From Eukaryota sp. GEM-RC1 (lineage: Eukaryota): DNA of 64,000 nt. The notes below the pieces were generated by a model. That model searched no databases. It saw only the letters and a program-made list of their open reading frames with translations, and was not told the origin of the DNA. Positions 2,509 to 64,000 of this stretch are shown piece by piece. The position numbers and the translations under genes are program-made. The stretch's first letter is position 1. Each line of letters opens with the position of its first letter. Where the stretch lies: contig JAUFOQ010000002.1 of NCBI GenBank assembly GCA_040285855.1, positions 806,001 through 870,000 of the forward strand. Direction: 5' to 3'.

Positions 2509-3378
2509 ATTAGAAGTAGCCACCTCTCAAAGAATTATTATTTGTCACGGGTACAAAAGGATAAATACTGTTGCAGAGCAGTATGGAGAAATACAAAAAC
2601 GACAACAATTGATCACGTTTGTGGAACTAATGGGGGTTGGCTGAGAACTTTTTTTGACAAGTTGTTTTTATGGAACAAAAACACTACTAGTAAGATAAAC
2701 ACAAATATAAGAACTCAATATCATTAAAGCAACAATCATTGCCATTAAAACTCACATCAGCTTTTTCTTCATAAAACATACTGAAAGCAAACAGAGCTAT
2801 TTTGTCTATCTGATAACTTGTTCAATAATCAATTAGCCACACAATTAGAATCAAACAGAATTGCCAAATTGAAAGACCTAATCTAAGACTGTCACAGAGA
2901 CCCAAAATCAGTTAGAACCCGAGAAACCATTCTCCTAGACAAAACAAATGTCACCACCACGAATTTTAATTGAGTGTAGCGATGAAAACAAATTCATATC
3001 TATTATACGATTTTTTTCGTTGCTGTTAACACAATGCAAACGTTCTGTAATACACATTCTAACAATACTTAACCCAAACTCGAAACTACAAATAAAAGTC
3101 ACAGACTGTATTTCACAATCTATAAACATCTACATGTGAAATATATAATAGAATAATCGAAAACAAATAACTAAAACGACCTTTTGTCTCTCTTGCTATT
3201 TAACACTACCCCAAAAACTAAAACCATTTGCTAAAAAAATATTCACTGAGGGCATATCTGTCCAAACAATAACTAAAGTTAATGAGAAATAAAGAATCTG
3301 AATAAACAATGTCCAAGTCACCAAAGGTTTGAGCCCAATCACTGCAACTCTTTGAATCTAACTACGAGACAGAGAGGT

Positions 3379-4011
3379 CTACGAAGAGACAGTGGTTCCC
3401 TTTTTCTGAGTCAACAGCTTTCTCTCAGCCTCTGTTCCATGTCTTAACCCTGAACCATCTTGCTTCAACGCATAAGAAATAGAAATAGGTCGGCCTGCAA
3501 TTGTTTGTCCATGTAACTCCTGAAGAGCCCTATCGGAATTATCAAAGGAATCAAACGAAACAAATGCAAAACCTCTTGAAGTACCAGTATCTGGATCTCT
3601 CATTACTCTAGGAGGAATGGGCATGTACCCAAAGTGACTGAAGAGATTATAGAGATGAACTTCGTCTACTGAAGGAGCTAAATTAGACACATGAAGATTA
3701 GCGCCAATTTCGACTTCGGCTTCTTCTCTGTGTGCTTTGTTTACACGAATGGGTTTGTTGAATAGACGTATCATGTTCATTATTCTGATAGCATAGTCAG
3801 CGTCTTCCTCACTTCGAAATTCTACGAATCCAAAGCCTTGGTGAGAGTTGGTGAGAGGGTCTTTTGGCATATGGACATTGACAACAGGGCCAGCTTGGAG
3901 AAACAGCTCGTAAAGAAGTGGTTCATCAGTTTGAGGATCAAGATTACCAACATAAATGGTGGCTTCCTGATTTCGAGTATCATAGTTTGCAGTGTATTTG
4001 TTTGTGCTCAT
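3379..4011 (-). CDS. SF3B4: Splicing factor 3B subunit 4 (SAP49/Hsh49)
   Basis: Two RRMs with diagnostic [55 protein letters not shown] and [10 protein letters not shown]. Confidence 0.95.
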
Positions 4012-4688
4012 GAGAAAATCTTCAAGAGAAAATGATCTTTTACAAAATCGAAGGACCTCATTGACATCCTCTGTTTACAAAATCGGGTCACTCTTCATTA
4101 CTCTTACAAAACAGGGTCATCAAACATCTTTCAAGTTTTCTGTATCTACTGGACATCACTGTTCTCAAACTTCATTCACTGTTCTCTTCAGCTACATGCC
4201 TTATTGGCTTAAAAATATAAAACTAGTATACTCTACATGAGAATCCGGTCAAGTGGTGATGGTTCTCCAACATAGTTGTCGAAATCCCATTCCTCCATCA
4301 GTCTTTCCTCGACTTTGGACGGTTCGTTATCATCATCTTCAACAACATCCAAATTTGGAATATGACTTTCCAATTACTTCTCTAACTTGAAAGTCATACT
4401 TGGAATGCCAAAGTTTTTCAGCAGCTGTTAATGGATTAGAAGAAGAATCTAACAGTACCCTTAGTAAATTTACTATTACTCTTTACATACATCAAGAGAA
4501 CAATACAGTCTATTACGGTATCTTTATAGGCAAATTTTGGTTCTTCCACTAAGGAGTTTCTAGACTTGTTTGATCAAATTTGTTTCCGATTGATCAAATT
4601 TTGAATACAAACTTTGACTGAGTTTAGCAACATTTTTAAATATATAATAGTGATAAAACCGGGTTCAGACTTTAGTGAAGTTCGAACA

Positions 4689-5366
4689 CATAGCTGAAAA
4701 ATACACTTTTGTGTATTTTTGTATTTTTAGTGTATTTTTGTATTTTTGTAAAATACAACTGTGTCTCAAAAGTGTATTTTTTGTATTTTTGTCTTTTTTG
4801 AACGAATTTCGCTAGATTTCAACATTTCTCTGATTGTACTATCTAAACCGTTGAAAGCCATGGTTAGTATGTGTAGATCAATCAACTAACGGCATTCAGT
4901 TGGTAAATTACTTCTCTCAACAATTATGATACAACCCTCTCCTAGTAAAACCCCTCCTGTCAACTATTCTTTACGTCACGTCAAGGGTGGGAATCCTCTT
5001 TGGAGTATGGTTGCTGTCAGCAACCCCAAAGGGACCTCCCAATATATAGCAGTGATCTAATGATGAATTGTTTCTCCCCTGAAGCTGGAAAGCCACGGCG
5101 TAAAAATAGATCACGTATTATGAAGATGAGAGAAGACGAAAATCTGTTAGAAAGTGAAGAATCAGTTTTCTAACTCAAGAGTATTGTAGTCACAAACCTA
5201 CTTAGCTTATTCCAATAATTTGAGCAACAAACAACAAATAGTTATTGTTTTTAATAAATCAATTTTTATTACTTGTATTTTTGTATTTTCGTGTGTAATT
5301 TTGTATTTTTGTATTTTTGTATTTTTGTATTTTTCAAACACGTGTTGGTTGTATTTGACAGCTATG
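4689..5366. mobile_element. Non-autonomous hAT-type element, CATAGCTG family, copy 2
   Basis: Same termini as 1148-2508. Perfect 8-bp TSD TTCGAACA at 4681-4688 and 5367-5374. Confidence 0.9.
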
Positions 5367-7559: not shown

Positions 7560-7815
7560 AACAACAAGAGTATCAATGTAATGAAACAATAAAACTAGAA
7601 TTCGATATCATTGAAACAACACCCGTCGCTATCAATTCGTTTAACAGCTTTGTCTCCATTAAAGGAAGTCACATCTAGTAAAACATTGGAGATGATTAGG
7701 GGAATTGTTTTCAGAACAGTCAAAACGATACAATTCAACCATAACATGCGATCAAACGTTTGTTCATCCTACATTTTTACAATTTTGCCGAAATCGTTTA
7801 AAAAAGAACTAGACG
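7560..7815 (-). mobile_element. 3' fragment of RLE-type non-LTR retrotransposon
   Basis: Shares GATATCATT(G/A)AAACAACACCCGTCG(C/G)TATCAA and flanking sequence with copies near 18940 and 31890. Encodes the ORF C-terminus DKAV..xDSDGCCFNDIxF. Confidence 0.75.
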
Positions 7816-18674: not shown

Positions 18675-18914
18675 AAGATCATCAAAAATTCGGATGTCTA
18701 TTATTGGAAAATTGGGTCTTCCTATTAATACACAGGTTGATCTAACTAGGCTCACTGAGACTAATTTTAACATGATTCACAGTCATCAATTTTAAAATCA
18801 GTTTCACTGAAAGCAATTTTCTGATGAGACAAGTTATTAACAAACCTTCTTTAACCATCGTTTATTTCTGTTTATCTCACATCTTTTTTAACACTCTTTT
18901 ATTTTATTATAAAT

Positions 18915-20200
18915 GTAATAGATCAAACAACTAAAATTTGATATCATTAAAACAACACCCGTCGGTATCAAGTCTTACAGCTTTGTCTTCGTAAAAGGAA
19001 CTCACAGCTACAATGTAGTAAAGCTTTGCAGATGATTATCGGATTTGTTTTAAACAATAATTCCTATTCAACATGTTTTACATGTTTTAGAGCCATCAAT
19101 GGTTTTTGTACTTATCCTGTTTGGCTTGTTCAGAAATGTCTAAAGGGGGAGGTTCAGACGAAGCGTTCTTTAAGGATGTCTTTTTACAAACATCAACCGA
19201 CACTACATCAACAACAAACAATTTTTCTGAAGAAGAAGAAACAACAACATCTGCTCTCCATTTACCAAAAAATTGGTTCTGTTTTTCGTCATTACAATTG
19301 CTATTTGGTGCTAAAGCAGGGATGTTAAAAAATATATTTTTTATTTATTTATTGCAATAAATATTATTTATATCTTTATTGTCAACAGTTGGATCACCAA
19401 TATATTTATTGTCTCAATCGGTAATATGCAATAATATTGCAATTTATTTCAATATTGTGACAATATATTTTCATGCTAAATTGTCGTGTTTTCATTTGCA
19501 AATATCGAACTTTCTTCAAACAACTCGTTCAACGATGTCTCAATTTTGAAAAAATATGATACAAACAGTTGACCATACTGTTATGAATCAAAATGACTAA
19601 TGATTTTAGTTGTTCGAAAGATTGTTCAGTCGTACAACGCTTACTACTGGCACTCTTCGATCACGTTTGCACCCTTCAAGCCTTGAGAATCAGTTACTTT
19701 TACTGTACAACTCGCAACTTTGACATGAAAATACTACTCGAAGAATTTTTCTCCACAGTCCTTGTCAAGATTTGTTGCACCAAGATTGGGATGTAATGGA
19801 CAAATAATAGACTGTAATACTACAGTGAAAATTTTTCATAAAACCCTGTTGATTCTACATTATACTAGTACTAGAGATATTGGCAATAAATATATATATT
19901 TATTGTCAAATTTGACAATATCAATATATTTATTGTAAACCCACACAATATTATATTTATTTAAATATATTTTTTAACATCACTGTTCTAAAGATCTTAG
20001 AAGTACAAATGATTCAATTTTGTAAGACTTACACATAGCATGTATGTGATCTCTTAAAGCTTCATGCATACACGTTCGATAAGTTATGTAGCGATTACAA
20101 CTTAACAGATGAGAAAACGTTAATTGTTTTCCACAGCTACATTGAAGATCACTTGGCAAATTATATGGCCATAAATAACAACGAATAAAAAAATCTCCCA
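18915..20200 (-). mobile_element. Decayed RLE-type non-LTR retrotransposon 3' region, interrupted by a hAT MITE
   Basis: 19986-20200 encodes the zinc knuckle CSCGKQLTFSHLLSC...HEALRD. 18915-19170 closely matches 31884-32245. Confidence 0.75.
19317..19985. mobile_element. hAT-type non-autonomous element
   Basis: 23-bp TIRs CAGGGATGTTAAAAAATATATTT vs CAGTGATGTTAAAAAATATATTT (22/23). TSD TGCTAAAG (19309-19316) vs TTCTAAAG (19986-19993), 7/8. ATATATTTATTG subterminal repeats. Confidence 0.85.
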
Positions 20201-28421: not shown

Positions 28422-29179
28422 TCTTTTCGCATTGAATCCAAATATACATTCAGTTCTTTAACAAAGTTGTAAAGAGAACCAAGATACCTACCCAGAAATC
28501 TAAAACCTGAAGATAATTAGTTCACAAAGGGAACATCTAAAGAATTAACAATTAAAGTTCCATGCGTCTTGGCAATCAAACACCATTTTTACAGATTTAA
28601 TTGAAGTCCAATTGCATCATACAGAAAAGCAGCCGGATTCGCAATCATACGATGAGTTGCCATATGAACAATAAAAGAAATATCATACAATTTCTAAGTC
28701 TGCATGTTCTTCTTTGAGTTTTTTCAGGATGGAATGAATAGCCAAACAAAAAAAGAAGGGGCCAAGAGGATCTCCTTGTTTAACACCACAAACAGAATTA
28801 AGAACAAATGAATTAAAAACGAAGTCAGAAGAGCGACCATAAAAACAATGAAAAAATGAACCTAAATCAGGAAAACTGTTTTCCAACTCAGAACAAATGG
28901 CATTTCGTTTAACAGAATAAGAAGCATTCTTAAAATTCTAATTGAAAATGCAATTATTTTCAACTTTTTGACGAAAACATCAGAAGAAAGGGCAGAAGCT
29001 CCATCAATGGTTGTAATACATTTTGATAAAATGAAAAAACTCCTTAGTTTTGTTAGAAATTCTTCCAAAGACAATAGAAGCAAACAGACGATAAATAGCT
29101 TCACCTAAAGTAATAGGTCGGATTTTCTTGTTAGGCTTAATCAGGTCTTAAACGAGAAAAGTTATGATTGCATCGTATC

Positions 29180-29335
29180 GATTTTATTGTTTTAAAAACA
29201 ATTCCGATAATCATGTCCAAAGCTTTACTAGGGTGAATTCCTTTTACGAAGACAAAGCCGTTGCAAGATTTGATAGCGACCAGTGATGTTTAAATGATAT
29301 CAAATTATAGTTTAGTCTATTTCAATAATAAACAG
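29180..29335 (+). mobile_element. 3' tip of RLE non-LTR element
   Basis: TCCTTTTACGAAGACAAAGCCGTTGCAAGATTTGATAGCGAC...AATGATATCAAATTATAG matches the family C-terminus. Confidence 0.7.
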
Positions 29336-30959: not shown

Positions 30960-31865
30960 GAGTATCGATTTGCAAGGAGAAACGACCGAATTGTTGAACT
31001 TCTTGTTGACTAACAATTTAACAGGTCTGCTTCATGTCTGATTACTCAAATCCCTCAAGTTTACGGTCTTCTTCTTGATGATAACTCTTGGTCATTAAAC
31101 ATGCGTTTACGGTCATATATTTGGCCTGATAACCTTCCACACAATTTGAAATGCCAATGTGGGCAATCTGTAACACCTGCACATTTATCGAATTGTAACC
31201 GTTTTATTTCTTTTTAGAAGTAAGGTTCATGATTCAGTAAGGGATCAATTATATTGTATGTGTAAATCTTATGGTATAGTTTCCTTTTTAGAACCAGTTC
31301 TGGCTGGTTTGTTAGATGATACAGATGTTGACAAATCGTTTGGAAATAGCCGTGGTGATGTCAAATTTCCTGGTCTCGATGGATCATTCATTATTGCTGA
31401 TGTTATGTCTATCGATGTTGGTAATGGTTCCGACAAGAAACTTGCTAAATCTAATGCTAAAAATCCTCTGTTGGTTGGTGACGAAATTGAAATGGAAAAA
31501 TATTGTACTAAATTGAAATTATGGAATCGGTTTCACACTCGAATTACTTGTTGTACCCTGTTGTATGTTCACTGTACGGTTCTTTAGGTGAATCGACCAC
31601 ATCATTGCTTGAAATCTTTGTGACGATTGCAAAAGAAAAAACATCAAAGACTTTTCATCTGAGATTTTGGAAAACTCGAGTCGTGTTTGCTATCTTTAAA
31701 GGTATGGAGACTTCCATATCTAGCGCTTTGTTATCTCTTGGCAGACATTATGAGGATAAGGTTGGTGAGAATTTCCAGATAGGCAATCTGGACTTTGAGG
31801 ATATTGATTATTAGATGTATGTACACTGTAGTTTTTTTTAATTTGTAAACTTATATTTATTACAA
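30960..31865 (+). mobile_element. Decayed RLE-type non-LTR retrotransposon 3' region
   Basis: MRLRSYIWP..CQCGQ...HLSNC, HDSVRDQL, FLEP, RGDV, IIADV, EKY, YGSLG, FWKTRVVF: zinc knuckle plus PD-(D/E)xK-type endonuclease. Confidence 0.85.
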
Positions 31866-31869
31866 ATGT

Positions 31870-32248
31870 AGTAGATCAAACAACTACAATTTGATATCAT
31901 TAAAACAACACCCGTCGCTATCAAATCTTACAACAGCTTTGTCCTCATAAAAGGAACTCACTGCTAATAAAGCTTTGGAGAAGATTAGGGGAATTGTTGT
32001 AAAAACAGTAAGAACGATCCGATTCAGCCATAACATATGATCAAAACGTAGGTACATCCTATTTTTAACGATTTTTCCGAAATCCTTTAAAAAATTCATT
32101 GCACTTTTTCCTAAACGTCCGTAAATTGGAAACAGCAAAGGGGCATAATTCGTATTCAACATGTTTTACATGTTTTAAAGCTAGCAATGGTTTCTTGTAC
32201 TTATCTTGTTTGGCCTGTTCAGAAATGTCTAAAGGAGAAGTTTCAGAG
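31870..32248 (-). mobile_element. 3' fragment of RLE non-LTR element, tail-to-tail with the previous copy
   Basis: YAPLLFPIYGRLGKSAMNFLKDF...WLNRIV...DKAVVRFDSDGCCFNDIKL*. Confidence 0.8.
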
Positions 32249-33565: not shown

Positions 33566-36500
33566 CTAACTAATGGAAATTGATTGCACAACTCCTCTAC
33601 CAACATTTTTCAAATATTCAACAACATACAATATATTGAATACTCCAGCAGCTTTACCTTTGATTTCAAGCCCTTCTACAGGAACTAAAAGCTCATGATT
33701 GTTGATTTGAAGCGACTTGGGCTGAAACACAGAATTATCAACTAAGATGTGTAAGTCACAAGAATGATGAGGAGAAGAATAATTGTTAATGTAAAAACTT
33801 AAATATTTGGAGAAAACCGAATCTTTTTGATAGTATCAATCAAAACTCGATAAGGATGAAAATTCGGTAGATAAACTTCTTGGAATGGTTTTGAATCCTT
33901 AATATTTTTGAAATCAGAAGACAATTCTAATTCACCAGCCAAACTTTCCAATGATTTTAATTTGACCAAAATATTAAAATTTCTGGAGGGTTGATTCAAA
34001 GCTAACGAACGTAATAAAACATTTGAAGTACATGAATCGACGACCTTTAAACATTTCTTCGCATAACTTGCCAAAAACTGAAAATCAGCTGTCGTAAACG
34101 ACTCCTTCTTAATCCAGAAAGTTCCATGAGGATCATATGGAGAATAAATTCGAATAGGTGAATTAGAAATAGGTTCATAATTAATCAACGGAAACTGAAG
34201 AACGTCATCATCTTGAGAAGTCAATGGATAACAGACGAGGGAAACTGTAGACGAAGATGACCAAGAAGCCATCATTGCAAGGAACTTAACGAAGAATTGG
34301 GACTGTGTAGTTGGTACTGAATTGAAAGACAATCCCAAGAGCTTTTGATTGGATGAAAACGTGATCAAATCGTGATTAACTGCCAATTCAGCCAATTCAT
34401 TGGAGAACACAGCGCAAACCAGTAATTCCATGGCCTCTGTACTAATGCAATCACCAAAAGAAAGATTATTCAATAAACATTTGGCTATAACTACACAATC
34501 AAAAAAGATTGGATATTTTAACGTGTAGCTTTGCATAAACTTAGCATGTGAAACCTTAGGTACAAGATCTTCTTGATGAAGACCACAATGAGAGACAATC
34601 AAAGAAAAGAAGAGATCGTTTTGGTAAAAGTAACCGGATCCTTGGTCATTAATACAGAACTTATTTGAATCTAATGATAATTTTTCAAATAATTCAATGA
34701 GCATTGCCTGGCGGAATTTGATTAGACCTTCAGTTGTTCTGGGCCAAGTCGATACAGATTCAAAATTCACGAATATTTCAATTGGTTTTGAAAAATGCTT
34801 GAAATCATCATCAAAGTTTGGTTCAGCCGAAGTATATCTAGAATCAACACAACAAACTTCAATCAAACTGAGTGGCAAATCCAATTGGTAAAGTGACGCA
34901 ATCAACTCATCAGTGATGGATCTCAATTCCGCAGATTTATGAGCCAATTCAGCTATTTTGAACGTTTTGGTAAATGGTGCTGAGCAAACTTCGATATCTG
35001 CCACGGGTAAACCTAAATGCTTCTTAATTAGAAACTTGCAAACATCTGTGAGAACGTTATGTAAATGAGATTCGAAAACTACCGTATAGTGAACTTGACC
35101 GCTGCTGAACTTTCGAAGACGAGCACTGTCACCAAAGATATTTAAAAATTGTTCAATTTGATCAGATAATTGATCATCTTTTGGGGACCTCGAATAACGT
35201 TCTCAAAAACGTGATCTGATTTTGTCAGAAAATTTAAAATAACTGAAGAATTTGATTCAATAAATTCTCCTCTACTCAAAACAATTCCAGTTGGGAACAC
35301 TGTCTCAATCATTTTAATGAGGGTGCTAATAATTGATAGAACATTGAAATCTGTTGAGACTGAAGTATCAAAATTATTTAGAAATTCTTCGTATTTTTTA
35401 AAATCTGTAAGATTAAATCTAATGGAATGGGAAAAACGCTGCACTAATGAGAAATTGTTCAAAAACAGTGATGAAAAGATCAAAATCGAGTTATCACTTG
35501 CCTTATCCAATGATTGGAAGACTTCCATTGACTTGATTGCACAGTACCGCAAATCTGATATCAATCCAACAGTAAAAGTATGTCCTAAATTAAACCAAAG
35601 TTCATTCTTTGGAGTTTCATTAAATAAACAGGACAACTTTGTAACAAACACGTCTGCAAAAGAATCTAAATCAAGTTTTGCAACATGTTCGCTTTCATTG
35701 AGCTGATTCAAAAAACACGTGTTCAAGCAATTACCAATACTTCCTGACAAGAAATTTAAAAATATTCTGAAAATTTGGAATGATGATTGAGTTTTGTTGA
35801 TTAGAGTAGTACCATTCAACAACGACCTCGCTATTTCAGTTGCAAACACAACATCAAAACCAACAAGAGTTGAACCAAAAACTCCTGTTTCCTTAACCAA
35901 ACTATCAACAAAACTAGAGCATCTTGAAGTTCGTCAAACAACAGAGAATCTTCAATCAAAGGAATGTGAAGAGAAGCAACTATAGAGTTGTAGAGAATAG
36001 GACAAGGCGATGAAAGTAAGTGAGTATGAAGAGAGAAAAGAGAGGGAGGGAGGGCAGGTTTCAGAATGACGGAATAGTTAAGGGAACCTTCAGATAGAGA
36101 GAGCAGTAGATCGTAGACACCTGGAGTAGCTCCTGGAATGGGGGTAAAGGAAGTGTTGTAGGAGGAGAGGTGGTTCTGAAGGTGAGTAAGGAAGAGGTGT
36201 CTTCGGACAAGCCACGTGGCCTTGGAGAAAGGACGAGAAGTGGTGAATGATGAGGGTAGATCTATTTGAATGAAGAAGATGGGTTGCGGTTTAGATGAAA
36301 CGGTTTTGCAAATGGAAACATTTGATGGAGAGAGTTTGGGAAAGGTTATAGAGGAGGGAATTGGGAGATCAAACTCTGAGATAAAGGAGGAAAGGCGATC
36401 ACCAGCAAGGTTTGCATCGATTTGTTCTGCAGATAAAGAAGAAGGCTGTAGCTGGGTAACGGTTTTAGCTAACTTCTTAAGAGTTTTGTGAATGCTGGTT

Positions 36501-39403: not shown

Positions 39404-40347
39404 ATGAGCGATTCAGTGAACTTAGTGATCCGAACTCCCGATCCTCGATCTCGATTGGATCTAAATCAAGTCCCTCGTACTCTGACCATCTTAGAACTCA
39501 AAAATCTCATTAGTGAACAATTCCCAACCCCAGCACCAGTAGAACATCAGAAACTCATATTTATGGGAAGAGTTCTCGACAATAATGATAAAACTCTCTT
39601 AGAAATATTACCTGGTCGAGCACCACTAGTTCAACTGAGCTTAGTAGTTTCCGATCCTTCTCAACAGTCCACCTCTACTCCTGCTTCACCAGTTGTGGTT
39701 TCTTCTCCAGTTATTCAACGTCGACCTCCACCCCAACCACGTAATTACTCCTCTTCTATGGGAACAACTGTACAGGAAGTGCCACGTGATGTCTGGACAT
39801 ACCTAGAAAACGTCCGTGACTCTCTATCAGCAAAACATCGAGATCGACAACGGAAACGTCCTCTTTTTCCAGGGAACCAGTTCCTAATCAAGAGTACGAT
39901 CTCCCTGAAAACTATGTTCGTCTACTAACACATCTCCCCCCGGCTACCCCTGCTGCTACTCAACCTCTGATTGGTATACCTAGGAATATTAACCGTCAAC
40001 TTCTTCGGTATTTCATTGGAGGGTTGGTGCTAGCGCTGTTCGTGGGGAATCAAGCTGGGTTTAACTCTGTTCTGTGGTTAATCCTCTTGGTTTCTCTTTT
40101 CACATGTTTGTTCTTTGTCACTAAATTTGCAATTACACGACTTCAATTGGAAAACAATGGGAGGTTTATTGACAGATTTGTACATGGTTTCATGCTCTTT
40201 ATTTACTCGTTGTTTCCTGCTGTTAGGCCTGATGCCCTCGTGCCACATCGTCCTCAACAACACCAGCCCGACGACCAACCTCAGGAACAGCCACAAGAAG
40301 ACCCAGCTGCAGAGGAAGTGGAACAACAACAAGAAGAACAAGAGTAA
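39404..40347 (+). CDS. Herp/Usa1-like ubiquitin-like-domain membrane protein (ERAD), one frameshift
   Basis: ATG 39404. UBL VNLVIRTPD...TILELKNLISEQFP..P.VEHQKLIFMGRVL. A -1 shift at T5 39864-39868 joins it to C-terminal TM helices ending FIYSLFP. Confidence 0.7.
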
Positions 40348-40494: not shown

Positions 40495-41725
40495 CTAAAA
40501 GACTAGACTATAGACTACAAAGAGGACGTAACAACTAACAAAAATGGCTCCGACAGTTCTCGACAATTTAAACTTCGCCAATACAATGGTAATAAAAGCA
40601 ATCATAGTAATCGTGACCAACATAATCCCATCAAACACAATCTCTTCCACGTGAATCACCAAGGTTTGATTAGGATAAATGAACGTATAAATAAACCACG
40701 GAATTCCTGTAGCAATCAAAATATCAAAAAGATTGCCCCCCATCACGTTACTAAATAGAGCGTTACCCATGCCTCTTTTAGCCACTGCAATCGAAGTTAG
40801 AGCTTCCGGAAGACAAGTAAAAGGAGCTAAGAGCAGTAGACCTGTCAACTCGTCATTAAAGTTCAGTTCTTCACCAATGAGTTCTACTGCTTCTACAACG
40901 AAGAACTCCAGGACACCAATGACAATGATGGCGTTGATGAAGGTAAAAGCAAATAGTTTACGCGTTTTTTCAGTTGAGCACGGGATAATTAGAATCGTGA
41001 GTACCATGTTGATTGGCAAACAGAATAGCCACCAAAGTTTGTGGAAGAATCCTTGTGGGACAGTGAAAAGACCTTTATGACCAGGACTCTCCTCAGAGTC
41101 GTCAGAAGTCATAGGAATCACATGTTCACGGAGAGGCCGCATGACTGATTGAGATTTGCGATGCAGGAACTTTTCCATCCACGGAAAGTATTTCTTTGAT
41201 CCTAACACAGCAGTGACAAAAAGACCATAGATAACTAGAAATACAACGGAATCCACTCTAGTAATGGTACTGTCGTATAAAAGTCCATATAAGAAAACAA
41301 GATGAGACCAAAAAGAAGATCACTTCACGAATAACAACACGGAAGTCAAGTAGAAGGGGAGATTTGATGAAGAGGCAAGCAAGTCCAAGAGTTAAAAGAG
41401 TATTGAACACAGTGGCTCCTATTATGTTACTCAGGCCAACGTCATTGTGATCGATGAATAGAGATATGAGTGAGGCAAACAGTTCTGGGACTGAGGCTCC
41501 AATGGCAAGAAAGATAGCACCAGCGATGTCATCATTGACGTTGTAACGAGCGATCAAGACTGTAATGGACTCCATGAAATAGTGTTCGCAGACAAGAGCA
41601 ATTGCTATCACTCCGTATATGACAAAAGCCAGCAACACTAGAAATCTTATTGTTGGATTGATGGGAAGTGGTGGTAACGGTATATTAAAGCTACCTAGGA
41701 GCGACGTAACAGCATGCCTCAGCAT
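40495..41725 (-). CDS. K+-dependent Na+/Ca2+ exchanger (NCKX/SLC24-like), one frameshift
   Basis: Alpha-1 repeat DIAGAIFLAIGASVPELF..SNIIGATVFN and alpha-2 repeat GLLLLAPFTCLPE..GMGNALFSNVMGGNLFDIL. Shift at A4 41279-41282 restores LYDSTITRVDS. Confidence 0.85.
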
Positions 41726-48804: not shown

Positions 48805-50867
48805 ATGGGCCGTGGACGTGCAGGCTCAATTGCACCTACAGCTGAGCCATCAAAGGCTATTCTAGTAGCATCTTCTTTCTCCAGCTATTATCCTCTTGCT
48901 GATGAACATCATGAAGGTCTTCTTCCAATGATCAATACTAAAGCCATTGACTACTCTCTTGAAGCACTAGAAAACTCTGGTGTAGATGAAATCATTGTGG
49001 TCTGTGCTGGACCCTGTGGTACTTCTCTTGGTGCCTATCTCAACTCTTCTCCTTGGACTTCTCCTACAATGCATCCAAAGGTCAAACCAATCATCAGAAC
49101 GCAAGGTCTCGTTTCCATTGTCGATGCCATTAAACAAGTTGACGAATCAAAACCTATCAGCGGTGATGTTATCTTAATGGATGGTTGCGTTGTCACCAAT
49201 GCCCGACTAGCTGATATCCTTGAATGTCACAAAGCCAAAGTTCAAGCCAATTCCTCTGTTGCTGCCACTGTTTGCTTCTTCTCGTCTTCTGACGTCTCCA
49301 CTAGAGGTGTTACCAATCAATTCCTCCCAGTCATTGACTCCGATTGCAACCTTGTTTCCCTTGTCCACCCGTCTGGTCTCCCTGGTCAACCAAAGAACCT
49401 TCGTATTCAGAGGAGGTTGTTCCTTGAGAATAGGAACTTCACTATTGCCAATGATTTGTCTTATTCGGGGATTGCAGTGATTTCGCCCCAATTCTTAACT
49501 TCTGCTTTTGAATTCATTGATGCTAGGGACTTTTGTACGTTAATATCTTCAATTCTTGCTTCTGATCTCTTATCAATCAAGATCTCTACAATCACGTCCA
49601 AATTCAATGACTATCTTTCCTTCCGCGTAGACTCCCTCCCTAACTTTCTCTCACTTCAACTCTTCATGGCTAAACGTTGGCTCTATCCCTTAGCTCCTGA
49701 AGTTCCCATTGGCCACTCTTCCAGTGGTGTGAGGTTCTCTAGGCTTGGTATCTACAAGGGTTATTACGTGAACTATGATAGGAGCAGCGTTGTTGGAAAG
49801 TATTCTGTTTTGGAGGATCATTGCTCAATTGGAGCTAATTGTGAGGTGATTGATAGTGTGATTAAGAGTAGGGTCAAAATAGGTCATAATTGTCACGTGA
49901 AAGGATCGTTTATAGGAGAGGCAAGTATTCTAGAAGATAACGTATCTATTGGAAAAAGTCTAGTAGCTTCAAAAGCTTACCTTTGTTCAGGTGTTGTGCT
50001 GAAGAAGTTCTGTATTGTTGGAAATGGAGTCTGTTTACCAAAAGGATTCGAGTTGGATGACGGTCAGATTGCATCACGAGAGAAGTTGAGCTATTTCGAT
50101 GATTTAGACACATTGAATGTTACCCATCCTAGTACTGGTAAGATTGTGAGAGTGTTTATTTACCAATCGAATATTTCAAAAATTGTTCAGAGCTCTACTA
50201 CAGTCCATGATTGTGCTCTCATCACGTCATCATACCCTTTCACCCACGAACCAATCGATCAAGACGTTTCCTCTCTTCGCTCTCCTTTTTCAAGGAAGTT
50301 TCTGAGTATCTGTCAGCGGCTTACAAGGATCATTTTTCTATTGACAATGTTGGTGTTGAGATACATAGTTTAAGGTGTGCCCATGCCAAAACACCTCCAG
50401 AATGTGCGTGTGCTATTGTTATTTGCTTTGTTGAGATTGCTATTCGTTCCATACTTCCTGATTATCAACAGTTCTCAGATATCGAACCGACTGAAAGTCA
50501 AATAACTGTCATTATTGAAGAGCTTTCGATTCTTTTAGACCTTTATAGTTCTGTTGTTCTACAGTTTCTTGGTATTGGGGGTCGGGAACGGCAAGCAAAC
50601 GAAGTCCTCGTGATTGAAACTATTGTTGATCTGGGAGGGGAGATTGAGATGCTTCTGTGTTTCTTTCAACAAATTCTTCATGCTTTGTATACAGCAGATA
50701 TTCTATCGGAGGATTCTATTCTGCAGTGGTATCGTGGAGCATTGGAAGAAGACGATGAAGAGATTGACTCTATTTATGCTCGAAAGTGCCAGGTCTTTGT
50801 AGAGTGGTTAGAGAATGCAGAGGAAGAGAGTGAAACTGAAAGTAGTGATGACGATAGTAGTAGTTGA
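48805..50867 (+). CDS. EIF2B5: Translation initiation factor eIF2B epsilon, one frameshift
   Basis: KAILVASSF...LLPMIN..IDYSLEAL, RWLYPLAPE, hexapeptide left-handed beta-helix, W2 domain LYTADILSEDSILQWY...FVEWLENAEEES. A -1 shift at T5 50286-50290. Confidence 0.9.
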
Positions 50868-51457: not shown

Positions 51458-52915
51458 ATGGCTGGAGGTGCAAGCGTTGGCGCTAGAATTACGCCTTTGG
51501 CAGCCTTGAGCTTCACATTCAATATGGCTGTGGGCATTGGTTCAATGAGTTTGCCCAAAGTGTTCCAAACAGTCGGTTTTCTCCTTGGTACGATCTTCAT
51601 CCTTGTTCTTGCTGTGTTTGCTTACATTAGCAGCACATTCGTCATTGAAAGTCTATCAATAGTAAATGCTCTTTTGGACAAAGATCGTTCTGTCAAGTCC
51701 ATCAATGCGGATCACAATCTTAGTCTACACACCCCACTTATTAATATTGAGGAACAGAAGCCAACTTCATTAAGCCCTTTTCATCTCCACCGCAGAACAG
51801 AATATGTCAAAGTCGCGGCTGCCCTTTTCCCACGACCTCTATTGATGTTCTTCAACGTTGTTTTTCTTTCCTATTTCTTGGGTGATCTCAGTATGAAGTC
51901 TTTCTCATTCTCATTGTAGTAATATATGCCACGGGAGTCCCAATCGCTGTCAAACAAATCTTTGGCGAAACTATTTTTGTGTTTGGCAATGAAATCACGG
52001 GCATGGCATTACATCGTTACATCATTGTTATCTTTGGCATAATAATCACACCCTTGTCCCTCGCTGATTACCAGAAGACCCGTGTTTTGCAGTCCATCAC
52101 TTTGGTCCTACGTATCGTTGCTTTCTATACTATGATTATCATTGGTCTAGTCTATGTCCTCAACGGCAGAGGTACTCCTGTGAAGCAGTTACCAGTATTC
52201 AATCTAAAAAACCTACCTGTATTGTTTGGAGGTACTTGCTATTCTATGATGTGTCACCACTCCCTGGCTTCAACTATAACTCCCTTAAATGATCATAAAC
52301 ACGCGTTCCCTGTGCTGAGAAGATCTTTTTATGCTGATGGCCACTTCCTACATTGCTCTTTGTTCAACCGCTGTGTTTGCATTCAGTTCCCCTGATCTAC
52401 CAGAGCACTGTGCAAATTCTCCCAGTGGAACCTGTCAAATTCAGGATTTGTATCTCCAAAACTTCGCCTCACATGACTATCGCATTATTGCGTGGTCTTT
52501 GATGTTGTTCCCGCTGGCCATCTTCGTCACTCTCTATCCAATGATTGTAATGACTCTGAAACAAAATCTGGAACAGTTTCTGCCTTTCAAACCGGATTCT
52601 ACCTTAAAACGCCCCTTCTGCACTTCTTTCTCGATTATAGTTCCGTTGTCCATTGGTCTGGTTTTTTCTGATCTGAAGGCTGTAATTGGATTAGTTGGAA
52701 CGTTCTGCGGATCGTGGATTATGTTTGGGTTCCCCTGTTTGTTCGCTTTCTATGCCAGAAGGGTAGCAAGAAGAGAATTTCCTAATACCGTTGATTTGAA
52801 CTGTTTTGCTAGTAATTTTTCGTCCAATCGTTGGATTTATTTAGTGTTCGGTTTCTTTTCTATTATTTTTGGAGTTCCAGTTTATCGTTTAGTAGCTTCA
52901 TTTTTAGGATTTTAG
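51458..52915 (+). CDS. TMEM104: TMEM104-like amino-acid transporter (one intron, one frameshift)
   Basis: FNMAVGIGSMSLPKVF..GFLLG, FVIESLS..NA, spliced YFLGDLIIYA..VP, QKTRVLQ, LFGG..YSMMCHHSL, LYLQNF, YPMIVMTLKQNL. A +1 shift at T5 52326-52330. Confidence 0.82.
51891..51919 (+). other. 29-nt GT-AG spliceosomal intron
   Basis: GTATGAAGTCTTTCTCATTCTCATTGTAG. Removal gives GGT GAT CTC A|TA ATA TAT GCC (GDLIIYA), puts both ORFs in frame and restores the conserved motif. Confidence 0.85.
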
Positions 52916-58107: not shown

Positions 58108-58979
58108 TGTAGAGAGAAATTGGTTGAATCCTGAAATGAGATTTTGTGGCTTCCATTTTGCCACTTGTCGAACTTGGCTGTTCAGATAATAAGTTGCTTC
58201 AGTAGGCTTTTTTGATGAGGTTTTTGTTTTTGCTTTCACCTATATTGTCAATGTATCTCCACCTGTATTTACGGCAATTCCGCATGCCGAACTAATGAAT
58301 ATCTTCTGAAGATGACTGTCAGCAATAAATGTGTTTACATTACATACAAATGAAACAAATATTTAAATTATTGTGAAGCTTAAGTACGTGTACTCACCGA
58401 TATATATGAAACAGTTTACTTCCCCCACTCATCATTGGCCTGTTCAAATTTCACTTTCATGTAGTGTCTTGCCTACTTGACAATTTTTCCATCAAAGTAG
58501 ATGTATATTTTTGAGTAGACACAATTTTGACAGTGACTTCCTTTTTGAGGACATAGCAGTGATAGGATACGACAGCGATGGGTCTTGATTTAATCATAGC
58601 AAAGTATCATAGCTATACTTGTACTAAAATATACTCGTGAAAAAGTCTGGCTATAAAAAGAAATTTAAACGGTGACTACGTCTCCTCAACAAATTACCAA
58701 TTAACAAAAACAGTATCTTACTTAACTGAGATCTTTCCATAGGCAACAACTATAGGTAGGTACCAGTACAATAATTCGTAAGTAAATGTAAATGATTATA
58801 ATTGTTCACAAGAGCTGACCTTAGCTTCCATGTACAGACTTTAAGGTCAGTCAGCTGTTCAAACAACACCTTTCTTTCAAAAAGTGATACGAGGAAGCTA
58901 TAAATAGAGCAATCTGTTGATGGAAAAATATACACAGTATCATAGAGATCCATTTCAATTCTGACCTTAGACAAATCGG

Positions 58980-60470
58980 CAAAACAAATCTCTGTTCATT
59001 GAAGTAAATTGGCAAGAAAATTTTCTTGCAATTTTCCGATTTACTATGGCAATACCGAGGAGATCTGGAAATGTACCTTTAATGTTGAAACTCAAATTAT
59101 TTCTGAGTCTCAATTGTTTTTTTACTCAACAGATGCCCCGTTTTGAATATGTGTGCTAATGAAAGAGAAGTGTATGTAAGCACAGAATCTGGAATCATTG
59201 TGAAACATCTACTTTGGAATCAAGAACTGAAGTTAGGGTCAGACGATATCAGTCTTTCAGCATTTTCGTTGGACAAAGATTTCTACGCAAATGCTAATTG
59301 TTCTACATAGAACACACATTTCTCGATATTACATGGCCAGAATTCATGGTTTCAATGATATAAAGCTCAAGAGTCCAGTTCAGCCTGTAGGTTGGAAAAG
59401 CTCTCAATTTTCTCCTGAATTCGTTGCTCTAAAAAAAAGATCCCAATTATCTCCATCGACGTTTTGTTGTTGATAGACGTTCTATTTATGTACTCGTCAA
59501 TGACGAATTGATTGATGTTTTAGCTTTATCTGATTTGATCAGATATTGTCAAAAGTGTAGTAACGTTATTGATGATAATGATTCATTTTCTGATGCATGT
59601 GGTCTATTTGAATTGTCCTATGTGTATATTTTTGTTACAAAAGACAACTGGATTGGGATATTCAAGTGTCAAGGCACCGCAGTATCAGTATATCTCAGCT
59701 CAATCATTCGTGACAAGTCTCATGGGCAAATATTACGAATATTTCCTTCTTGTACTATCGATGGTACTGTATATATTGTGTGTGAGAAAGGCATTAAGAC
59801 TCTAACTGTTATATGTTAAATCTGTAGCTGCGTTTGATGAAATACAAATGTTTGTTATATAAGTATTATCTATAGCTTAGCATATGATGTATTTTATCTA
59901 GGTACATTCACTATACTACACTTTTGCTTCTAGTAAGCACGTTATGATATACGTTTTCTGCAACTACTTTTCGACTACAATCCCCAAGATTTCCCACATC
60001 TTCATGGAATTAACTCCTAATCAATTTAAAACATACGAAATGACAACAAAGTGTTAACTCGACCAAAAACACATGTTCCTTCAGATGTTTGATTGTCCGA
60101 TACATCAACAAGTTATTGACGATGGCAGATCGTGTATATATAGCTGAAGCTCAGCCATTCTGTTCATAAAACGTCTTAAGCAGAAACGACATATCATACA
60201 ACTCACCACTTAGAGACTCCAAGAAGATTCCGACATCGATTGATTCCCTTTCGGCTACGTAGAGGAGACTTGAAGAAAGGGACTTGATGGATTCATGCAC
60301 CAAGTAGGAAGAAGTGTAAACAATGTGGAAGTCGACCTATCTGGTTGGTTAAAATGCTGTGAGTCATGATCGGTAGAATGTCAAAGAAGAGTGTGTCAAA
60401 TCTTCCAGTTGACTTTTGTTGATTTTCTTTAGATTTCACCGATAAACACTTTGTCGACTACAGTTCATTC
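58980..60470. pseudogene. Decayed coding-like sequence upstream of the Fanzor locus
   Basis: Broken protein-like frames on + (59040-59820) and - (59900-60470) with multiple stops. No transposase motif recognised. Confidence 0.25.
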
Positions 60471-60473
60471 TGA

Positions 60474-61739
60474 ATGAACATTATCTTTGTTACAAGCTAC
60501 AAGTCTATGTGTTTGAGAACATTCCAATGTATGGTGGACATCTGTCGTCTAACTGTCTTTGTTGAGTGTTTTAACACCACCTTAGCGCCGCTCTGTGATT
60601 ATTGCTGTCATCAGTACTGTTTTGCTCCCTTAGTAATAAAACCGGTTGTTTCCTCGCATAATCCGTTCCCAAAAGACCTCACCGCCGACGGTGACACTGA
60701 GTCCAATCCAGGACCGATTTCTGAATCAGCCCTACAGACTTTGTTGCCTGATGAGTGGATCGATGATGAAGTTATTGATGAGTATTGTAAGTATCTCTTT
60801 AACTTACATAATTATCCTGTTGAATGCTTTATTTCTCCGACCCTAATGTTGCACAATACTGTGGATACAACCACTCAACAATTTGATGATGTTCTACTCA
60901 CGAATTTTATCATACAACAATTGACAAAAATTTGTCATTGCCGATATTTTATTGCTCCTGTTATTAATAATACAGGTACCAAAGGTTATCACTGGGGGTT
61001 GTTGATTATCGACCGTCATATCTCAAAGTGGTTGTTCATTGATCCAAATTACGACACTAATGATTTTTATCTAGATGAAGAAAACGTAGAATGTCCATCT
61101 GGTAGCTTCAATGTGTTCTTGTCAACAGTGCATTCAGCACTTTGTGTGCTTGAGTATATGCCTATCATTGTACCCGTTACCCAGAAACAAACACCTAATG
61201 ACTGTGGAGTCTATGTTCTTGAGTATATCAGAATATTTGTACATGCTTTGAACTTTCGCAATATAGATAACGTTTCAGCTGTAAAAGATGAATTACAGAA
61301 TGCTAACAAGTACATTGATGCTGGTTCAGTTCGACAGACCATTATTAATTATTTTGTACCACCAACGGTAACGACTGCTGATCATCCTGAGTCACGTAAG
61401 TCCAAACCAAGAGAGCCATCTGGTGCTAGTCCTGCAAAACGAAAATCAAAAATCAGTCCAGCCAGTCCATTACCACCTACTGTATTAAAACCCGTTCCTG
61501 TCACACCTATTCGTGTCTCCAAAAAAATCAGGACCAGAGATCCACTCAGTCAATCAGGTCTTACTCCTCAAACACGAAAACATAGAATTGCTCCTGTTTC
61601 TGAAAGTCAACAGACGATACCATCTCAGTCCCCTCCGTCAATACCTGCGTCAATACCTGAAGTGCAGCCAGAACAAGAACCCAATCAACCACAAAAGTTC
61701 TGTGTAATTGAGGATAAAAAGTGTGATCTCAGATCCTGA
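60474..61739 (+). CDS. 2A-like peptide plus Ulp1/SENP (C48-like) cysteine protease plus Pro/Ser/Lys-rich linker
   Basis: LQTLLPDEWIDDEVIDEY (WLNDxxI motif). GYHWGLLIID (His codon 60990), FIDP (Asp 61041), QKQTPNDCGVYVL (Cys 61203). Confidence 0.88.
   Translation: MNIIFVTSYKSMCLRTFQCMVDICRLTVFVECFNTTLAPLCDYCCHQYCFAPLVIKPVVSSHNPFPKDLTADGDTESNPGPISESALQTLLPDEWIDDEVIDEYCKYLFNLHNYPVECFISPTLMLHNTVDTTTQQFDDVLLTNFIIQQLTKICHCRYFIAPVINNTGTKGYHWGLLIIDRHISKWLFIDPNYDTNDFYLDEENVECPSGSFNVFLSTVHSALCVLEYMPIIVPVTQKQTPNDCGVYVLEYIRIFVHALNFRNIDNVSAVKDELQNANKYIDAGSVRQTIINYFVPPTVTTADHPESRKSKPREPSGASPAKRKSKISPASPLPPTVLKPVPVTPIRVSKKIRTRDPLSQSGLTPQTRKHRIAPVSESQQTIPSQSPPSIPASIPEVQPEQEPNQPQKFCVIEDKKCDLRS
60666..60716 (+). 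other. 2A/StopGo-like ribosomal skipping sequence
   Basis: FPKDLTADGDTESNPG|P matches D(V/I)ExNPGP except V/I->T, and has the upstream DLTxDG context seen in viral 2As. Confidence 0.75.
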
Positions 61740-62217
61740 ACGCTTGAATCTTAAAGTCGTTCGAGTTAAACAGGAGCCAGAAGTAGACGAAGAGATTGAA
61801 TCAACTTCAGAAGGTATTCCACAAATTCAGGATACTACTTTTGAAATTCAGCGTGATCCAGATTTAGATCCAATTGTGTCAATCTCTCTTCAGTTTACCC
61901 ATGATAAAATTACAATTGAAACTCACCTTTTCACCCATAATGTTTCAGAAATTTCACTTCCTAATTGTGTAGTTCACGCGTTTACAACTGAAAAATCAAT
62001 GTTAACAAATTTCATTACATTTTTAAATCTTAACAAGCCCAGTTTGTTAATAAGTTATGATTGGCATTTAGATACTTTTCCGTTTTTAGTATCACGATGT
62101 AAAAAATTAGAAGTTGACATTGATTATACAATTGATGATTACATTTCTTCTCTTCCATCTTGGTTCCATAGATGGTGCAAACCAACGGAAATTGGTCCTT
62201 TTATTCCCTTGACTTGA
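61708..62217 (+). CDS. Degenerate family-B DNA polymerase 3'-5' exonuclease-like domain (middle of polyprotein)
   Basis: TFEIQ..DPDLDPIVSISL, VHAFTTEKSMLTNFITFLNLNKPSLLISYDWHLDTFPFLVSRCKKL parallels the PolB exo pattern sFDIE..DPI..I, F..E..LL..F......PD...GYN...FD.PYL..R...L. Confidence 0.65.
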   Translation: MRIKSVISDPERLNLKVVRVKQEPEVDEEIESTSEGIPQIQDTTFEIQRDPDLDPIVSISLQFTHDKITIETHLFTHNVSEISLPNCVVHAFTTEKSMLTNFITFLNLNKPSLLISYDWHLDTFPFLVSRCKKLEVDIDYTIDDYISSLPSWFHRWCKPTEIGPFIPLT

Positions 62218-64000
62218 ATTCAGTATTGAAGAAGTTGTATGTCTTTAGAGGTGGTCGGTTTTTGGAAATCGTGACAACAATTATGATGGACATGAATAAT
62301 CATTTGAGAACATTTGAAAGTTTTGACAAGGAAAATGTATTCCTTAAGAGAATATTTCATTCTTTAGACAATCCTCTAGTGTCAGTTGAAGAAATGAAAG
62401 TGAAAACTGAAGAACGTCAGAACAAGGAGCCATCTGTAAAACTAAAACCCAAGGCTGAAATCGAGATTCGACTGTTAGCAGAATTAACAAAACTTAATGA
62501 ACTTTGGGAATCTACAACTTCAAGAGCCACCTTGTTATTGAACTCAATCAATAAGCTGTATTTGATACAATACCTTCTCTTTGATCTTCTCGATGAAAAG
62601 AAACAAAAATTAAGAGAACGACCACCAATGAAGGCGGTGAAGAAACGATTAGATAATGTTGTATCAAAGACTAAAGCGAATTGGATGGAATCTTGTGCTA
62701 AGAGAGCTCATCAAGTCAGAGTTCGTGGTACACATATGTTGAAACATTTTTTCATAACTAAGTTTCACAACTCTTTAATTTTCGACAAGGTCAAAGAGAT
62801 ACTACCTCCCACTGATTACATTTTCACTGTTAAAGAAGAAATTGAAACAGACACTGAAGTTTCAGACACTGAACAAACAGAAATTTTAAGTGAAGAGTTT
62901 GTGCCTCAACAATTAGAAGAAACTGAATTGCCTGTATCTTCAGACCCTCATTTTGTTTTCGATCGTACCATTGAATCGGAAATTTTAGATGAAGACAGTG
63001 GAATTTTAGAAGAAGACGGTGATGAAAATGAAACTGGTGAACCTGAACTTGACCTTTTTACTAAAATTCAAATTACCAAATTTGAATTACCAGACTGGGG
63101 AGCCTACTTTAAGAAGGGTCCAATGGGACAACTGTTGGCCATGATGTGGATTCCAAATCACCAATTTTTCAACAGTATTGATCATATTAAAACTGTGGAA
63201 AACTCTTTAAACAACATCATTTCTAATGTAAAAACAACAACTACAAAGAAGGAGTTCGCCCAACACTTCCTATCAAACTACATCCCTCTGTTAGAAACTG
63301 CTGGTGAAATGGTTGGTAAAGATAGGATCGTGTTTCCAAGTGGACTATATTTGGCTAATCCTCTCGGTTACGTTGCAACCGAAATTATTACAAATTATAA
63401 GAACAACATGAGCCAACACTTCCATGAATATGTTTTTCAAGTTTTTAATTTGGTTACTCAAAAGAAAGAGAGAATGGAAGCTATTACCGACAAAACTGAA
63501 AGACAAGAACTCTGTCAAAGGATTAATGAAGTTAGAGAATTGATTATTAATGGTCAAATTTCCAAAATTAATTTTGAAGATAAGCAAGTTTTTACCAATC
63601 CGGAATCTCACTTGAGTATATTATTCTTCAATTATTTGTTCAATTATTTTGAGGGAAAGATGGAGAAAACGATCTACTATGCTGAAAAGAGTGATCCGTT
63701 ATACTTTTTAAGTCATGCACTGTATTTGAACCGTCTCATTGAAGACTATTGTCCTGGTGTAAGAGCAAACAATCCTTTCCCATTGTCTAAATCTTTAATT
63801 CCAAATCATATCAGGTTCGATACGCAATGGTTCCACGAATTATTTCGTAGGGATATTACCCAACCTGTTAAATATAATGAAGTACGGAAGAATATTTGGG
63901 ATTCAGTATTAAAACCTCAGGCTATTCCAGAGTCATTATCCTATGACTTTAAATACACTTCAATTTCGTCAGACGGTTTAAGTTGTAGTTTGTTGATGAT
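62172..64000 (+). CDS. Fanzor1-like RNA-guided endonuclease, WED/REC portion (3'-incomplete)
   Basis: My translation gives a stop-free frame of 609 codons to the window end. N-terminal MKAVKKRLDNVV...RAHQVRVRGTHMLKHFFI (62628), LANPLGYVATEIITNYKNNMSQHFHEYV (~63350-63435), IYYAEKSDPLYFL, FPLSKSLIPNHIRFDT (63777-63824), IWDSVL, ISSDGLSCSLL (63963-63995), in Fanzor1 motif order. Confidence 0.85.
   Translation, partial: MVQTNGNWSFYSLDLNSVLKKLYVFRGGRFLEIVTTIMMDMNNHLRTFESFDKENVFLKRIFHSLDNPLVSVEEMKVKTEERQNKEPSVKLKPKAEIEIRLLAELTKLNELWESTTSRATLLLNSINKLYLIQYLLFDLLDEKKQKLRERPPMKAVKKRLDNVVSKTKANWMESCAKRAHQVRVRGTHMLKHFFITKFHNSLIFDKVKEILPPTDYIFTVKEEIETDTEVSDTEQTEILSEEFVPQQLEETELPVSSDPHFVFDRTIESEILDEDSGILEEDGDENETGEPELDLFTKIQITKFELPDWGAYFKKGPMGQLLAMMWIPNHQFFNSIDHIKTVENSLNNIISNVKTTTTKKEFAQHFLSNYIPLLETAGEMVGKDRIVFPSGLYLANPLGYVATEIITNYKNNMSQHFHEYVFQVFNLVTQKKERMEAITDKTERQELCQRINEVRELIINGQISKINFEDKQVFTNPESHLSILFFNYLFNYFEGKMEKTIYYAEKSDPLYFLSHALYLNRLIEDYCPGVRANNPFPLSKSLIPNHIRFDTQWFHELFRRDITQPVKYNEVRKNIWDSVLKPQAIPESLSYDFKYTSISSDGLSCSLLM

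Follow-up and report, generated by a model that had tools for sequence, protein, structure and literature searches.

We analyzed a stretch of 64,000 nucleotides (nt) from Eukaryota sp. GEM-RC1 (contig JAUFOQ010000002.1, positions 806,001 to 870,000 of the forward strand), hereafter the window, a piece of eukaryotic DNA whose genes are compact and whose G+C content is about 37%. The last 3.5 kilobases (kb) of its plus strand carry a gene in which a Fanzor1-like nuclease is preceded by a 2A-like peptide, a Ulp1-type protease and a PolB-type exonuclease domain. The gene appears as three open reading frames (ORFs): ORF1 (60474-61739; 421 amino acids, aa), ORF2 (61708-62217; 169 aa), which overlaps ORF1, and ORF3 (62172->64000; 609 aa), which is open at the window's end. 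An earlier note on this DNA had read these as three overlapping plus-strand frames, more than 1170 codons long in total, with the domains in this order; the ORF list together with the Pfam and PDB matches agrees with that reading, and we count about 1173 codons when the three ORFs are joined.

We searched 1.84 billion representatives for homologues and obtained 115 matches. The closest relatives are proteins of GEM-RC1 itself, of TZLM3-RCL (hereafter RCL) and of TZLM1-RC, which, judging from their labels, would correspond to the metamonads that PMC11316075 describes as Skoliomonas GEMRC, RCL and litria; the host thus likely belongs to this group. The cluster records name 34 Fanzor-part and 3 protease-bearing proteins of GEM-RC1, 12 proteins of RCL and 3 of TZLM1-RC. 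RCL copies of the family bear the accessions KAL0225525.1, KAL0224747.1, KAL0227451.1, KAL0216844.1, KAL0217707.1 and KAL0211645.1. In two RCL clusters, six of the ten members are single ORFs of 1394-1494 aa. Their 2A peptide reads GDVEANPGP, a Ser/Pro linker is present, the exonuclease keeps its four acidic residues, and Fanzor1 is complete, the RuvC residues D/E/D included; the other four are truncated records, one of them with NLGP. None of the ten members, the six unbroken ones included, contains the protease.

The joints of the window gene are also found in sister proteins: P0154 comprises the 2A peptide, the protease and the linker (85.5% identity to the window), and P0152 runs from the protease through the linker and the exonuclease to the first Fanzor strand, spanning both frame breaks described below. 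ORF3 itself passes from the exonuclease into Fanzor in one frame, and P0002 (94% identical; phmmer) reaches RuvC-I. These in-frame joints tile without a gap, which supports the claim of one fused coding unit. The expectation that other copies would share the architecture is borne out in part: the sister joints tile and six RCL proteins combine 2A, exonuclease and Fanzor, but no single record holds all four parts and the RCL proteins are protease-free. The sequences indicate that the gene likely encodes a single chain (leader, 2A, protease, linker, exonuclease, Fanzor), and we consider it highly probable that this architecture is real.

Parts of the chain

The chain starts with an in-frame leader (60474..60659), which resembles the sister copies only from 60630 onward. 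It is followed by a 2A-like 19-mer ending in DGDTESNPG|P (60660..60716), with the skip predicted between 60713 and 60714. Its NPGP (60705-60716) is the only one in the six frames of the window, and D.E.NPGP would be expected 3e-4 times by chance given the window's composition. The 2A-like motif named in the earlier note is present, but it departs from the canonical consensus: DTESNPGP has Thr at the V/I position and fits neither D(V/I)ExNPGP nor the class A core GD(V/I)ExNPGP (no strict match). The sisters P0153 and P0154 carry the canonical DIESNPGP, with Ile in place of this Thr, and the canonical core is found in seven of the eight RCL proteins spanning the 2A (GDVEANPGP), the exception being P0119 (NLGP). 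The motif is retained in two species despite different flanking residues, which suggests that it is under selection. In the 300 residues that follow the 2A, six RCL copies share 92-96% identity; in the stretch from 40 to 100 residues ahead of it, 13 of the 15 pairs are 12-23% identical and two are 83-87% identical, and the leaders are of four unrelated types. The 2A thus separates a variable front from a conserved body. It lies near the N-terminus, and a skip would shed a short variable leader only. The predicted leaders of P0139, P0143, P0153 and P0154 are tandem repeats that differ between leader types.

The protease domain (60717..61355) matches Peptidase_C48 of Pfam over residues 153-273 of ORF1 (E = 5.3e-7; 30.1 bits relative to a cut-off of 20.7). 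It contains the His-Asp-Cys triad and the oxyanion Gln: H173 (60990-92), D190 (61041-43), Q239 (61188-90) and C244 (61203-05). All of these residues are kept in the three copies that reach the Cys (3/3), and the top Atlas matches of a sister's protease domain are C48 (score 0.96). The SENP/Ulp1 assignment with an intact triad is therefore upheld by the Pfam match and the residues. The PDB matches are weak (best E = 0.004) and indicate no substrate among SUMO, NEDD8 and ubiquitin. The Pro/Ser/Lys-rich linker that the note had described follows at 61356..61697, and its basic cluster PAKRKSK (61431-61451) resembles a nuclear signal and might act as one.

The exonuclease domain was detected in ORF2 as DNA_pol_B_exo1 (Pfam; E = 1.3e-7; 31.7 bits relative to a cut-off of 23), and it extends beyond ORF2 and over both breaks (about 61698-62620). 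Its best polymerase match is yeast Pol delta. When the window and P0152 are aligned to the catalytic motifs, the D and E of ExoI are replaced by E and K, the D of ExoII by T and the D of ExoIII by K. Three of the four acidic residues are lost and the remaining one is changed from D to E; an Asp precedes the ExoII site by one position. Since these residues are replaced in both proteins, the exonuclease of the window's subfamily is predicted to be dead, in line with the degenerate PolB-like domain proposed earlier. The RCL exonuclease presents D-x-E, N-x3-FD and Y-x3-D, and ExoI-III are intact in all seven RCL proteins that span the domain. The structure model of P0152 has a mean predicted local distance difference test score (pLDDT) of 32, and the P0144 model is below 50 in its exonuclease part, values too low to support a fold for either extra domain or a packing of the domains.

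The N-terminal half of a Fanzor1 occupies 62628..64000 and leaves the window ahead of RuvC-I; the right end of the element, where a guide RNA would be expected, lies downstream of the window. ORF3 has no Pfam match, and its residues 303-609 (307 aa) gave four PDB matches at E ≤ 10, of which the best three are all Fanzor1: SpuFz1 of Spizellomyces (3.8e-7), then GtFz1 of Guillardia and PpFz1 of Parasitella. The first WED strand lies at 62628-62654, an acidic insertion at 62826-63059 and the REC helices from 63363; the motifs FPL..IP.HIR.DT and SDG are found at 63771-63824 and 63963-63998. The latter is a variant of the TDG motif, a Fanzor1 feature in the WED domain (PMC10711439, in part), with SDG in the window and P0002 and TDG in the other sisters and the RCL relatives. 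The earlier WED/REC identification is supported by the top three PDB matches and this motif, but the Fanzor part starts at about 62628, upstream of the motifs quoted for it. The RuvC-I motif DP(G/N) is present in P0002 (VDPNQ), P0120 and P0137, and the window ends before this site. P0002 is without a stretch of the WED region. The RuvC-II Glu, TS, C4 zinc finger and RD motifs defined for Fanzor1 in passages of PMC3627910 are found in all six full-length RCL relatives. P0144 presents the RuvC triad D963, E1240 and D1338 and the C4 zinc finger; its model (residues 200-1364) has a mean pLDDT of 70.5, mostly above 85 in the Fanzor part. All seven Foldseek matches of this model at E ≤ 0.001 are Fanzor1, with template modelling (TM) scores of 0.76-0.78 to SpuFz1 by target length, a fold that is that of the relative and not of the window copy. 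The Fanzor of this family is predicted to be an RNA-guided DNA cutter.

We reconstructed a quick, unrooted tree of 87 rows from REC to RuvC-I, with Shimodaira-Hasegawa-like approximate likelihood ratio tests (SH-aLRT) as the only support and with P0130 removed as too short. The 12 metamonad rows lie on one side of a branch (SH-aLRT 100) and the 75 others on the opposite side. At least three GEM-RC1 subfamilies lie on the window's side, and P0137 groups with the RCL copies. Because P0137 groups with RCL and the other GEM-RC1 subfamilies with the window, the family seems to have diversified before or across the species split. The longest of the 100 matches not labelled metamonad has 913 aa (source labels were checked for part of them). 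Neither exonuclease or protease profiles nor NPGP were found in 162 proteins outside the metamonad set, and the Pfam exonuclease and protease domains were found in none of 68 other Fanzor relatives of at least 550 aa; these counts cover the near relatives of one query and not all Fanzors. Among 565 candidates of 1067-3045 aa, no homologue of ORF3 was detected, which is a miss of sensitivity, since P0016 (1473 aa) exists, and the whole-length P0016 search returned only P0016 and P0139 among 5804 candidates. An Atlas search with P0144 gave leads only, at 0.76, and no related DNA locus was confirmed in viral contigs or metagenome contigs.

Upstream of the gene (59100-60420) are broken coding-like stretches, among them an ORF (59433-59819) and frames full of stops; none matches Pfam, and they could be remnants of a host gene or the 5' end of the element. 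We found no transposase or any other Pfam family in the six frames of 58500-60500 and no convincing terminal repeat within 58300-64000, and an NCBIfam scan gave no meaningful match.

The two frame breaks

The sister P0152 (599 aa) encodes the protease and the exonuclease in a single ORF. Its alignment to the window passes through frames 1, 2 and 1 with identities of 89, 94 and 89% and with zero residues lost. Relative to P0152, the window has one base too many at GG 61712..61713 (break 1) and one too few in the T4 run 62199..62202 (break 2); these are the only breaks in 3.5 kb, and there is no in-frame stop. The alignment confirms that a +1 and a -1 slip cancel, as proposed before, but not their sites (A5 at 61716-61720 and A3 at 62179-62181), and the A5 run has the correct length. 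Introns were considered at both breaks. At break 1, candidates of 29 and 53 nt led to the wrong frame and a candidate of 70 nt would remove residues that are present in P0152; at break 2, the sole candidate is located beyond the stop. Programmed frameshifting was dropped since a sister protein is single-frame throughout.

We then compared the breaks with seven frame-break junctions of host genes in the window, scanning for donor motifs (an eighth scanned region is not a junction and was left out of the count). Introns with these motifs could explain two of the seven and not the other five, and all of these five overlap runs of 4-5 like bases, eIF2B epsilon and Nrap included. Because host genes in the window break alike, assembly error is a likely cause of the two breaks as well, and we consider it clearly likelier than decay. 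The genomes of the relatives were assembled from early nanopore reads that were corrected afterwards, according to passages of PMC11316075.

Frame changes at ORF overlaps were observed at 50211-50373, 52319-52395, 41258-41319, 39820-39928 and 35142-35202 (eIF2B epsilon, an amino-acid transporter, a Na/Ca exchanger, a ubiquitin-like-domain gene and Nrap), and these five host-gene frame changes are likely residual assembly indels. A 29-nt intron (GTATGA...TTGTAG; 51891-51919) mends the frame of the amino-acid transporter, and host introns are very short. Among the sister proteins, P0006, P0007, P0130, P0131, P0145, P0149 and P0150 exit the Fanzor frame at the same Lys-Lys in REC, where P0003 continues. 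This shared exit could represent a systematic error in an A-run or a slippery site, or the seven could belong to a dead subfamily that was amplified.

A possible mechanism and its rivals

The extra domains likely help the element to copy itself back into cut sites. We propose that both breaks are assembly indels and that the 2A would drop any leader translated from upstream sequence, so that every copy would yield a uniform protein starting with Pro, perhaps at a damped level. Reduced protein level was frequent among retrotransposons in a survey of eukaryotic 2A-like sequences (bioRxiv 10.64898/2026.06.17.732966, in part), and a lowered level would suit a toxic nuclease. The Fanzor would then cut the empty site at a distance of 16-21 nt from the junction, in the manner of SpuFz1, whose cuts fall after bases 16-17 and 20-21 counted from the target-adjacent motif (PMC10432273, in part). 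Such a cut would leave a 3' tail of 16-17 nt that matches the far flank and mismatches the start of the occupied copy. If the tail were retained, repair could reseal the empty site; if it were removed by the 3'-5' exonuclease, gene conversion from the occupied copy would be favoured. A tethered Pol delta-type domain would fit this trimming, since the proofreading domain of yeast Pol delta can remove as many as 40 nt from an invading 3' end, with no effect in single-strand annealing, as reported in parts of PMC10868807. In the window's subfamily, the exonuclease would be a dead spacer or a DNA-binding module, and the tethered protease may free the nuclease or proteins at the break from SUMO or NEDD8 while the chain stays uncut. 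The earlier note had suggested that the protease acts on SUMO or NEDD8 conjugates at target chromatin; this is a plausible idea, and one already put forward for Ginger1 transposases (PMC2836005).

Set against its rivals, we lean slightly toward this mechanism as a whole, its trimming step being the least secure. Its most specific form is a tentative picture that may well prove wrong: a cut-and-trim Fanzor whose own exonuclease biases repair, so that it would need no transposase of its own, whose 2A would ensure a correct product behind any upstream sequence, and of which one lineage would have given up its exonuclease activity and would instead steer repair with a tethered SUMO/NEDD8 protease.

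The most serious rival, which we nevertheless consider unlikely, accepts the architecture and holds that the window copy and much of its subfamily have decayed, with the breaks as true mutations and the exonuclease and the 2A as relics. The Thr of the 2A and the degenerate exonuclease are substitutions and not indels, as decay would predict, break 1 lies at GG and not in a long run, all 34 listed GEM-RC1 Fanzor-part records are fragmentary and P0002 is missing its WED stretch. However, host genes of essential type in the window (eIF2B epsilon, Nrap) show the same breakage, the catalytic residues of the protease are complete in every copy that reaches the Cys, and the 3.5 kb contain just the two breaks and no in-frame stop. 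Somewhat less probable is another job for the exonuclease, which could shorten the guide RNA at its 3' end, or could erode the cut ends, so that religation fails and the target is lost instead of being converted. A 3'-5' exonuclease beside a guide-loading nuclease could use either nucleic acid, and engineered exonuclease-Cas fusions produce larger deletions. Guide trimming is harder to reconcile with a domain closest to the proofreading domains of DNA polymerases, which act on DNA, and with the other Fanzors, which mature their guides without such a domain (0/68).

It is rather improbable that the front end came from a non-LTR (long terminal repeat) retrotransposon, with the element spreading through RNA by means of LINE (long interspersed nuclear element) enzymes in trans and the 2A and the protease serving retro-mobility. 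Both 2A motifs and N-terminal Ulp1-like or deubiquitinase domains do occur in non-LTR elements (passages of PMC4640811 and bioRxiv 10.64898/2026.06.17.732966), and the leaders are variable, several of them being the tandem repeats mentioned above; on the other hand, domains of a reverse transcriptase or an endonuclease were found neither in the family proteins that were scanned nor within 2 kb upstream of the gene, and DNA transposons carry Ulp1 equally commonly (PMC2836005, in part). The model of the earlier note, a virus-style polyprotein cut by its own protease into separate protease, exonuclease and nuclease, builds on a 2A motif and an intact cysteine protease ahead of disordered linkers. 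This model is not supported by the comparison and is very improbable. Gly-Gly is the cleavage signal of Ulp1-family enzymes, and recognition sites of this kind were not found at the domain borders: ORF1 contains no Gly-Gly, and the only one nearby sits within the exonuclease domain, where P0152 has RRGR. Because ORF1 is without Gly-Gly, self-cleavage of the chain appears unlikely; moreover, the 2A would shed the leader only and the six unbroken relatives are without protease. Finally, the three ORFs of the window and the want of a four-part record would suit separate genes or nested fragments brought together by chance. P0152 bridges both breaks residue for residue and six relatives encode 2A, exonuclease and Fanzor in one ORF, so that this reading is largely refuted and scarcely credible.

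Several observations weigh against the single-chain architecture and the mechanism that we favour. The four-part chain is pieced together from overlapping copies, and RuvC-II, the zinc finger and RuvC-III were seen in the RCL relatives, the available sequences of the window's subfamily ending before them. Each of the 34 Fanzor-part records listed for GEM-RC1 is a fragment of at most 554 aa, and seven GEM-RC1 records end at one position, which is as compatible with decay as with systematic error; few donor motifs were included in the intron scan. When two viral 2As were subjected to saturation mutagenesis in mammalian cells, Val13 could be replaced by Ile only (bioRxiv 10.64898/2026.09.24.754024, in part), and since the window has Thr at that position, its ribosome skip is probably weak or lost. 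The leaders come from automated gene models, and what they translate may be flanking DNA that is open in the same frame. The trimming step is inapplicable to the window's subfamily because the exonuclease is degenerate there.

Elsewhere in the window, we observed a dispersed non-coding repeat family (7567-7809, 18903-19158, 29161-29313, inverted, and 31856-32247) whose pieces are 80-94% identical between copies. It could be a non-autonomous element, and no match to the Fanzor region was listed for it. Short repeats of the TGTATTTT type are clustered in the ORF-poor stretch 288-5366, which also has a repeat of 86 nt. An ORF of 137 aa (31174-31587) has no Pfam match; it presumably resembles the C-terminal endonuclease end of protist retroposons.

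Comparison with known systems

The family apparently represents an undescribed variant of Fanzor1, of which the unbroken relatives, and not the window copy, are the best specimens. A Fanzor fused to a 2A, to Ulp1 or another protease, or to an exonuclease was not found in the literature searched, which did not extend to subscription journals and Repbase; the supplementary peptide tables of 2A surveys could list these proteins. This agrees with the earlier note, which knew of no description of the combined architecture. No literature was found on Fanzor in metamonads or on TnpB fused to a DEDD exonuclease domain, and passages of PMC10530073 (with two supplements), PMC10711439, PMC3627910, PMC10432273 and PMC11423790 contain neither the term 'exonuclease' nor a natural protease fusion. 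PMC12338488 does not mention TnpB or 'transpos'.

The role of Fanzors in their hosts is stated as unknown in parts of PMC10432273. The combination of a Fanzor with an end-processing exonuclease and a SUMO-type protease points toward a repair step, and the natural contrasts within the family (exonuclease intact or dead, protease present or absent) offer a direct way to test homing as hypothesized here. All six unbroken RCL proteins could be expressed unmodified and may parallel engineered fusions of exonucleases and nucleases. A conserved 2A on a TnpB-family gene would add a new kind of carrier of StopGo recoding to those named in passages of the 2A surveys, which are viruses, retrotransposons and a small number of host genes.

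The window gene shares the REC/WED homology of the known Fanzor1 proteins (SpuFz1, 8GKH; GtFz1, 9CER; PpFz1, 9CF0; passages of PMC10432273, PMC11423790, PMC3627910 and PMC10711439). Its relatives also share the DPN-type RuvC-I, the shifted RuvC-II glutamate, the C4 zinc finger, the RD motif and the predicted fold, and like Fanzor1 the family is multi-copy, with an ORF without transposase. In contrast, the unbroken relatives are about twice as long (1394-1494 aa, relative to at most 913 aa among the 100 other matches), and the family adds an N-terminal 2A and a PolB exonuclease, to which the window's subfamily also adds the Ulp1 protease. The extra domain of PpFz1 is an insertion in RuvC, according to passages of the Fanzor1 papers. 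The exonuclease of RCL has the same ExoI-III layout as the proofreading domain of Pol delta (PDB 3IAY), but the family is without a polymerase domain, the exonuclease is joined directly to the first WED strand, and it is degenerate in the window's subfamily. DEDDh nucleases are carried by P and piggyBac elements (PMC3627910, in part).

Fusion of C48 to the main enzyme of a mobile element is also found in Ginger1 and Mutator transposases (PMC2836005) and in the NeSL and Utopia-1_TSP retrotransposons (PMC4640811), both sources in part; for the transposases, the former suggests that the domain takes part in repair regulated by SUMO or ubiquitin. As in the Fanzor family, the protease is present in some subfamilies of these elements and not in others; however, its partner is a DDE transposase or a reverse transcriptase there and a Fanzor nuclease here. 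In 2A-bearing non-LTR retrotransposons (L1Tc, Ingi, CR1, L2 and Crack; bioRxiv 10.64898/2026.06.17.732966, in part), the 2A likewise lies near the N-terminus and before the nuclease, and those with Josephin or OTU domains likewise pair it with ubiquitin-family proteases. Unlike these elements, the Fanzor family is without reverse transcriptase, and the enzyme downstream of its 2A is a nuclease of the TnpB family.

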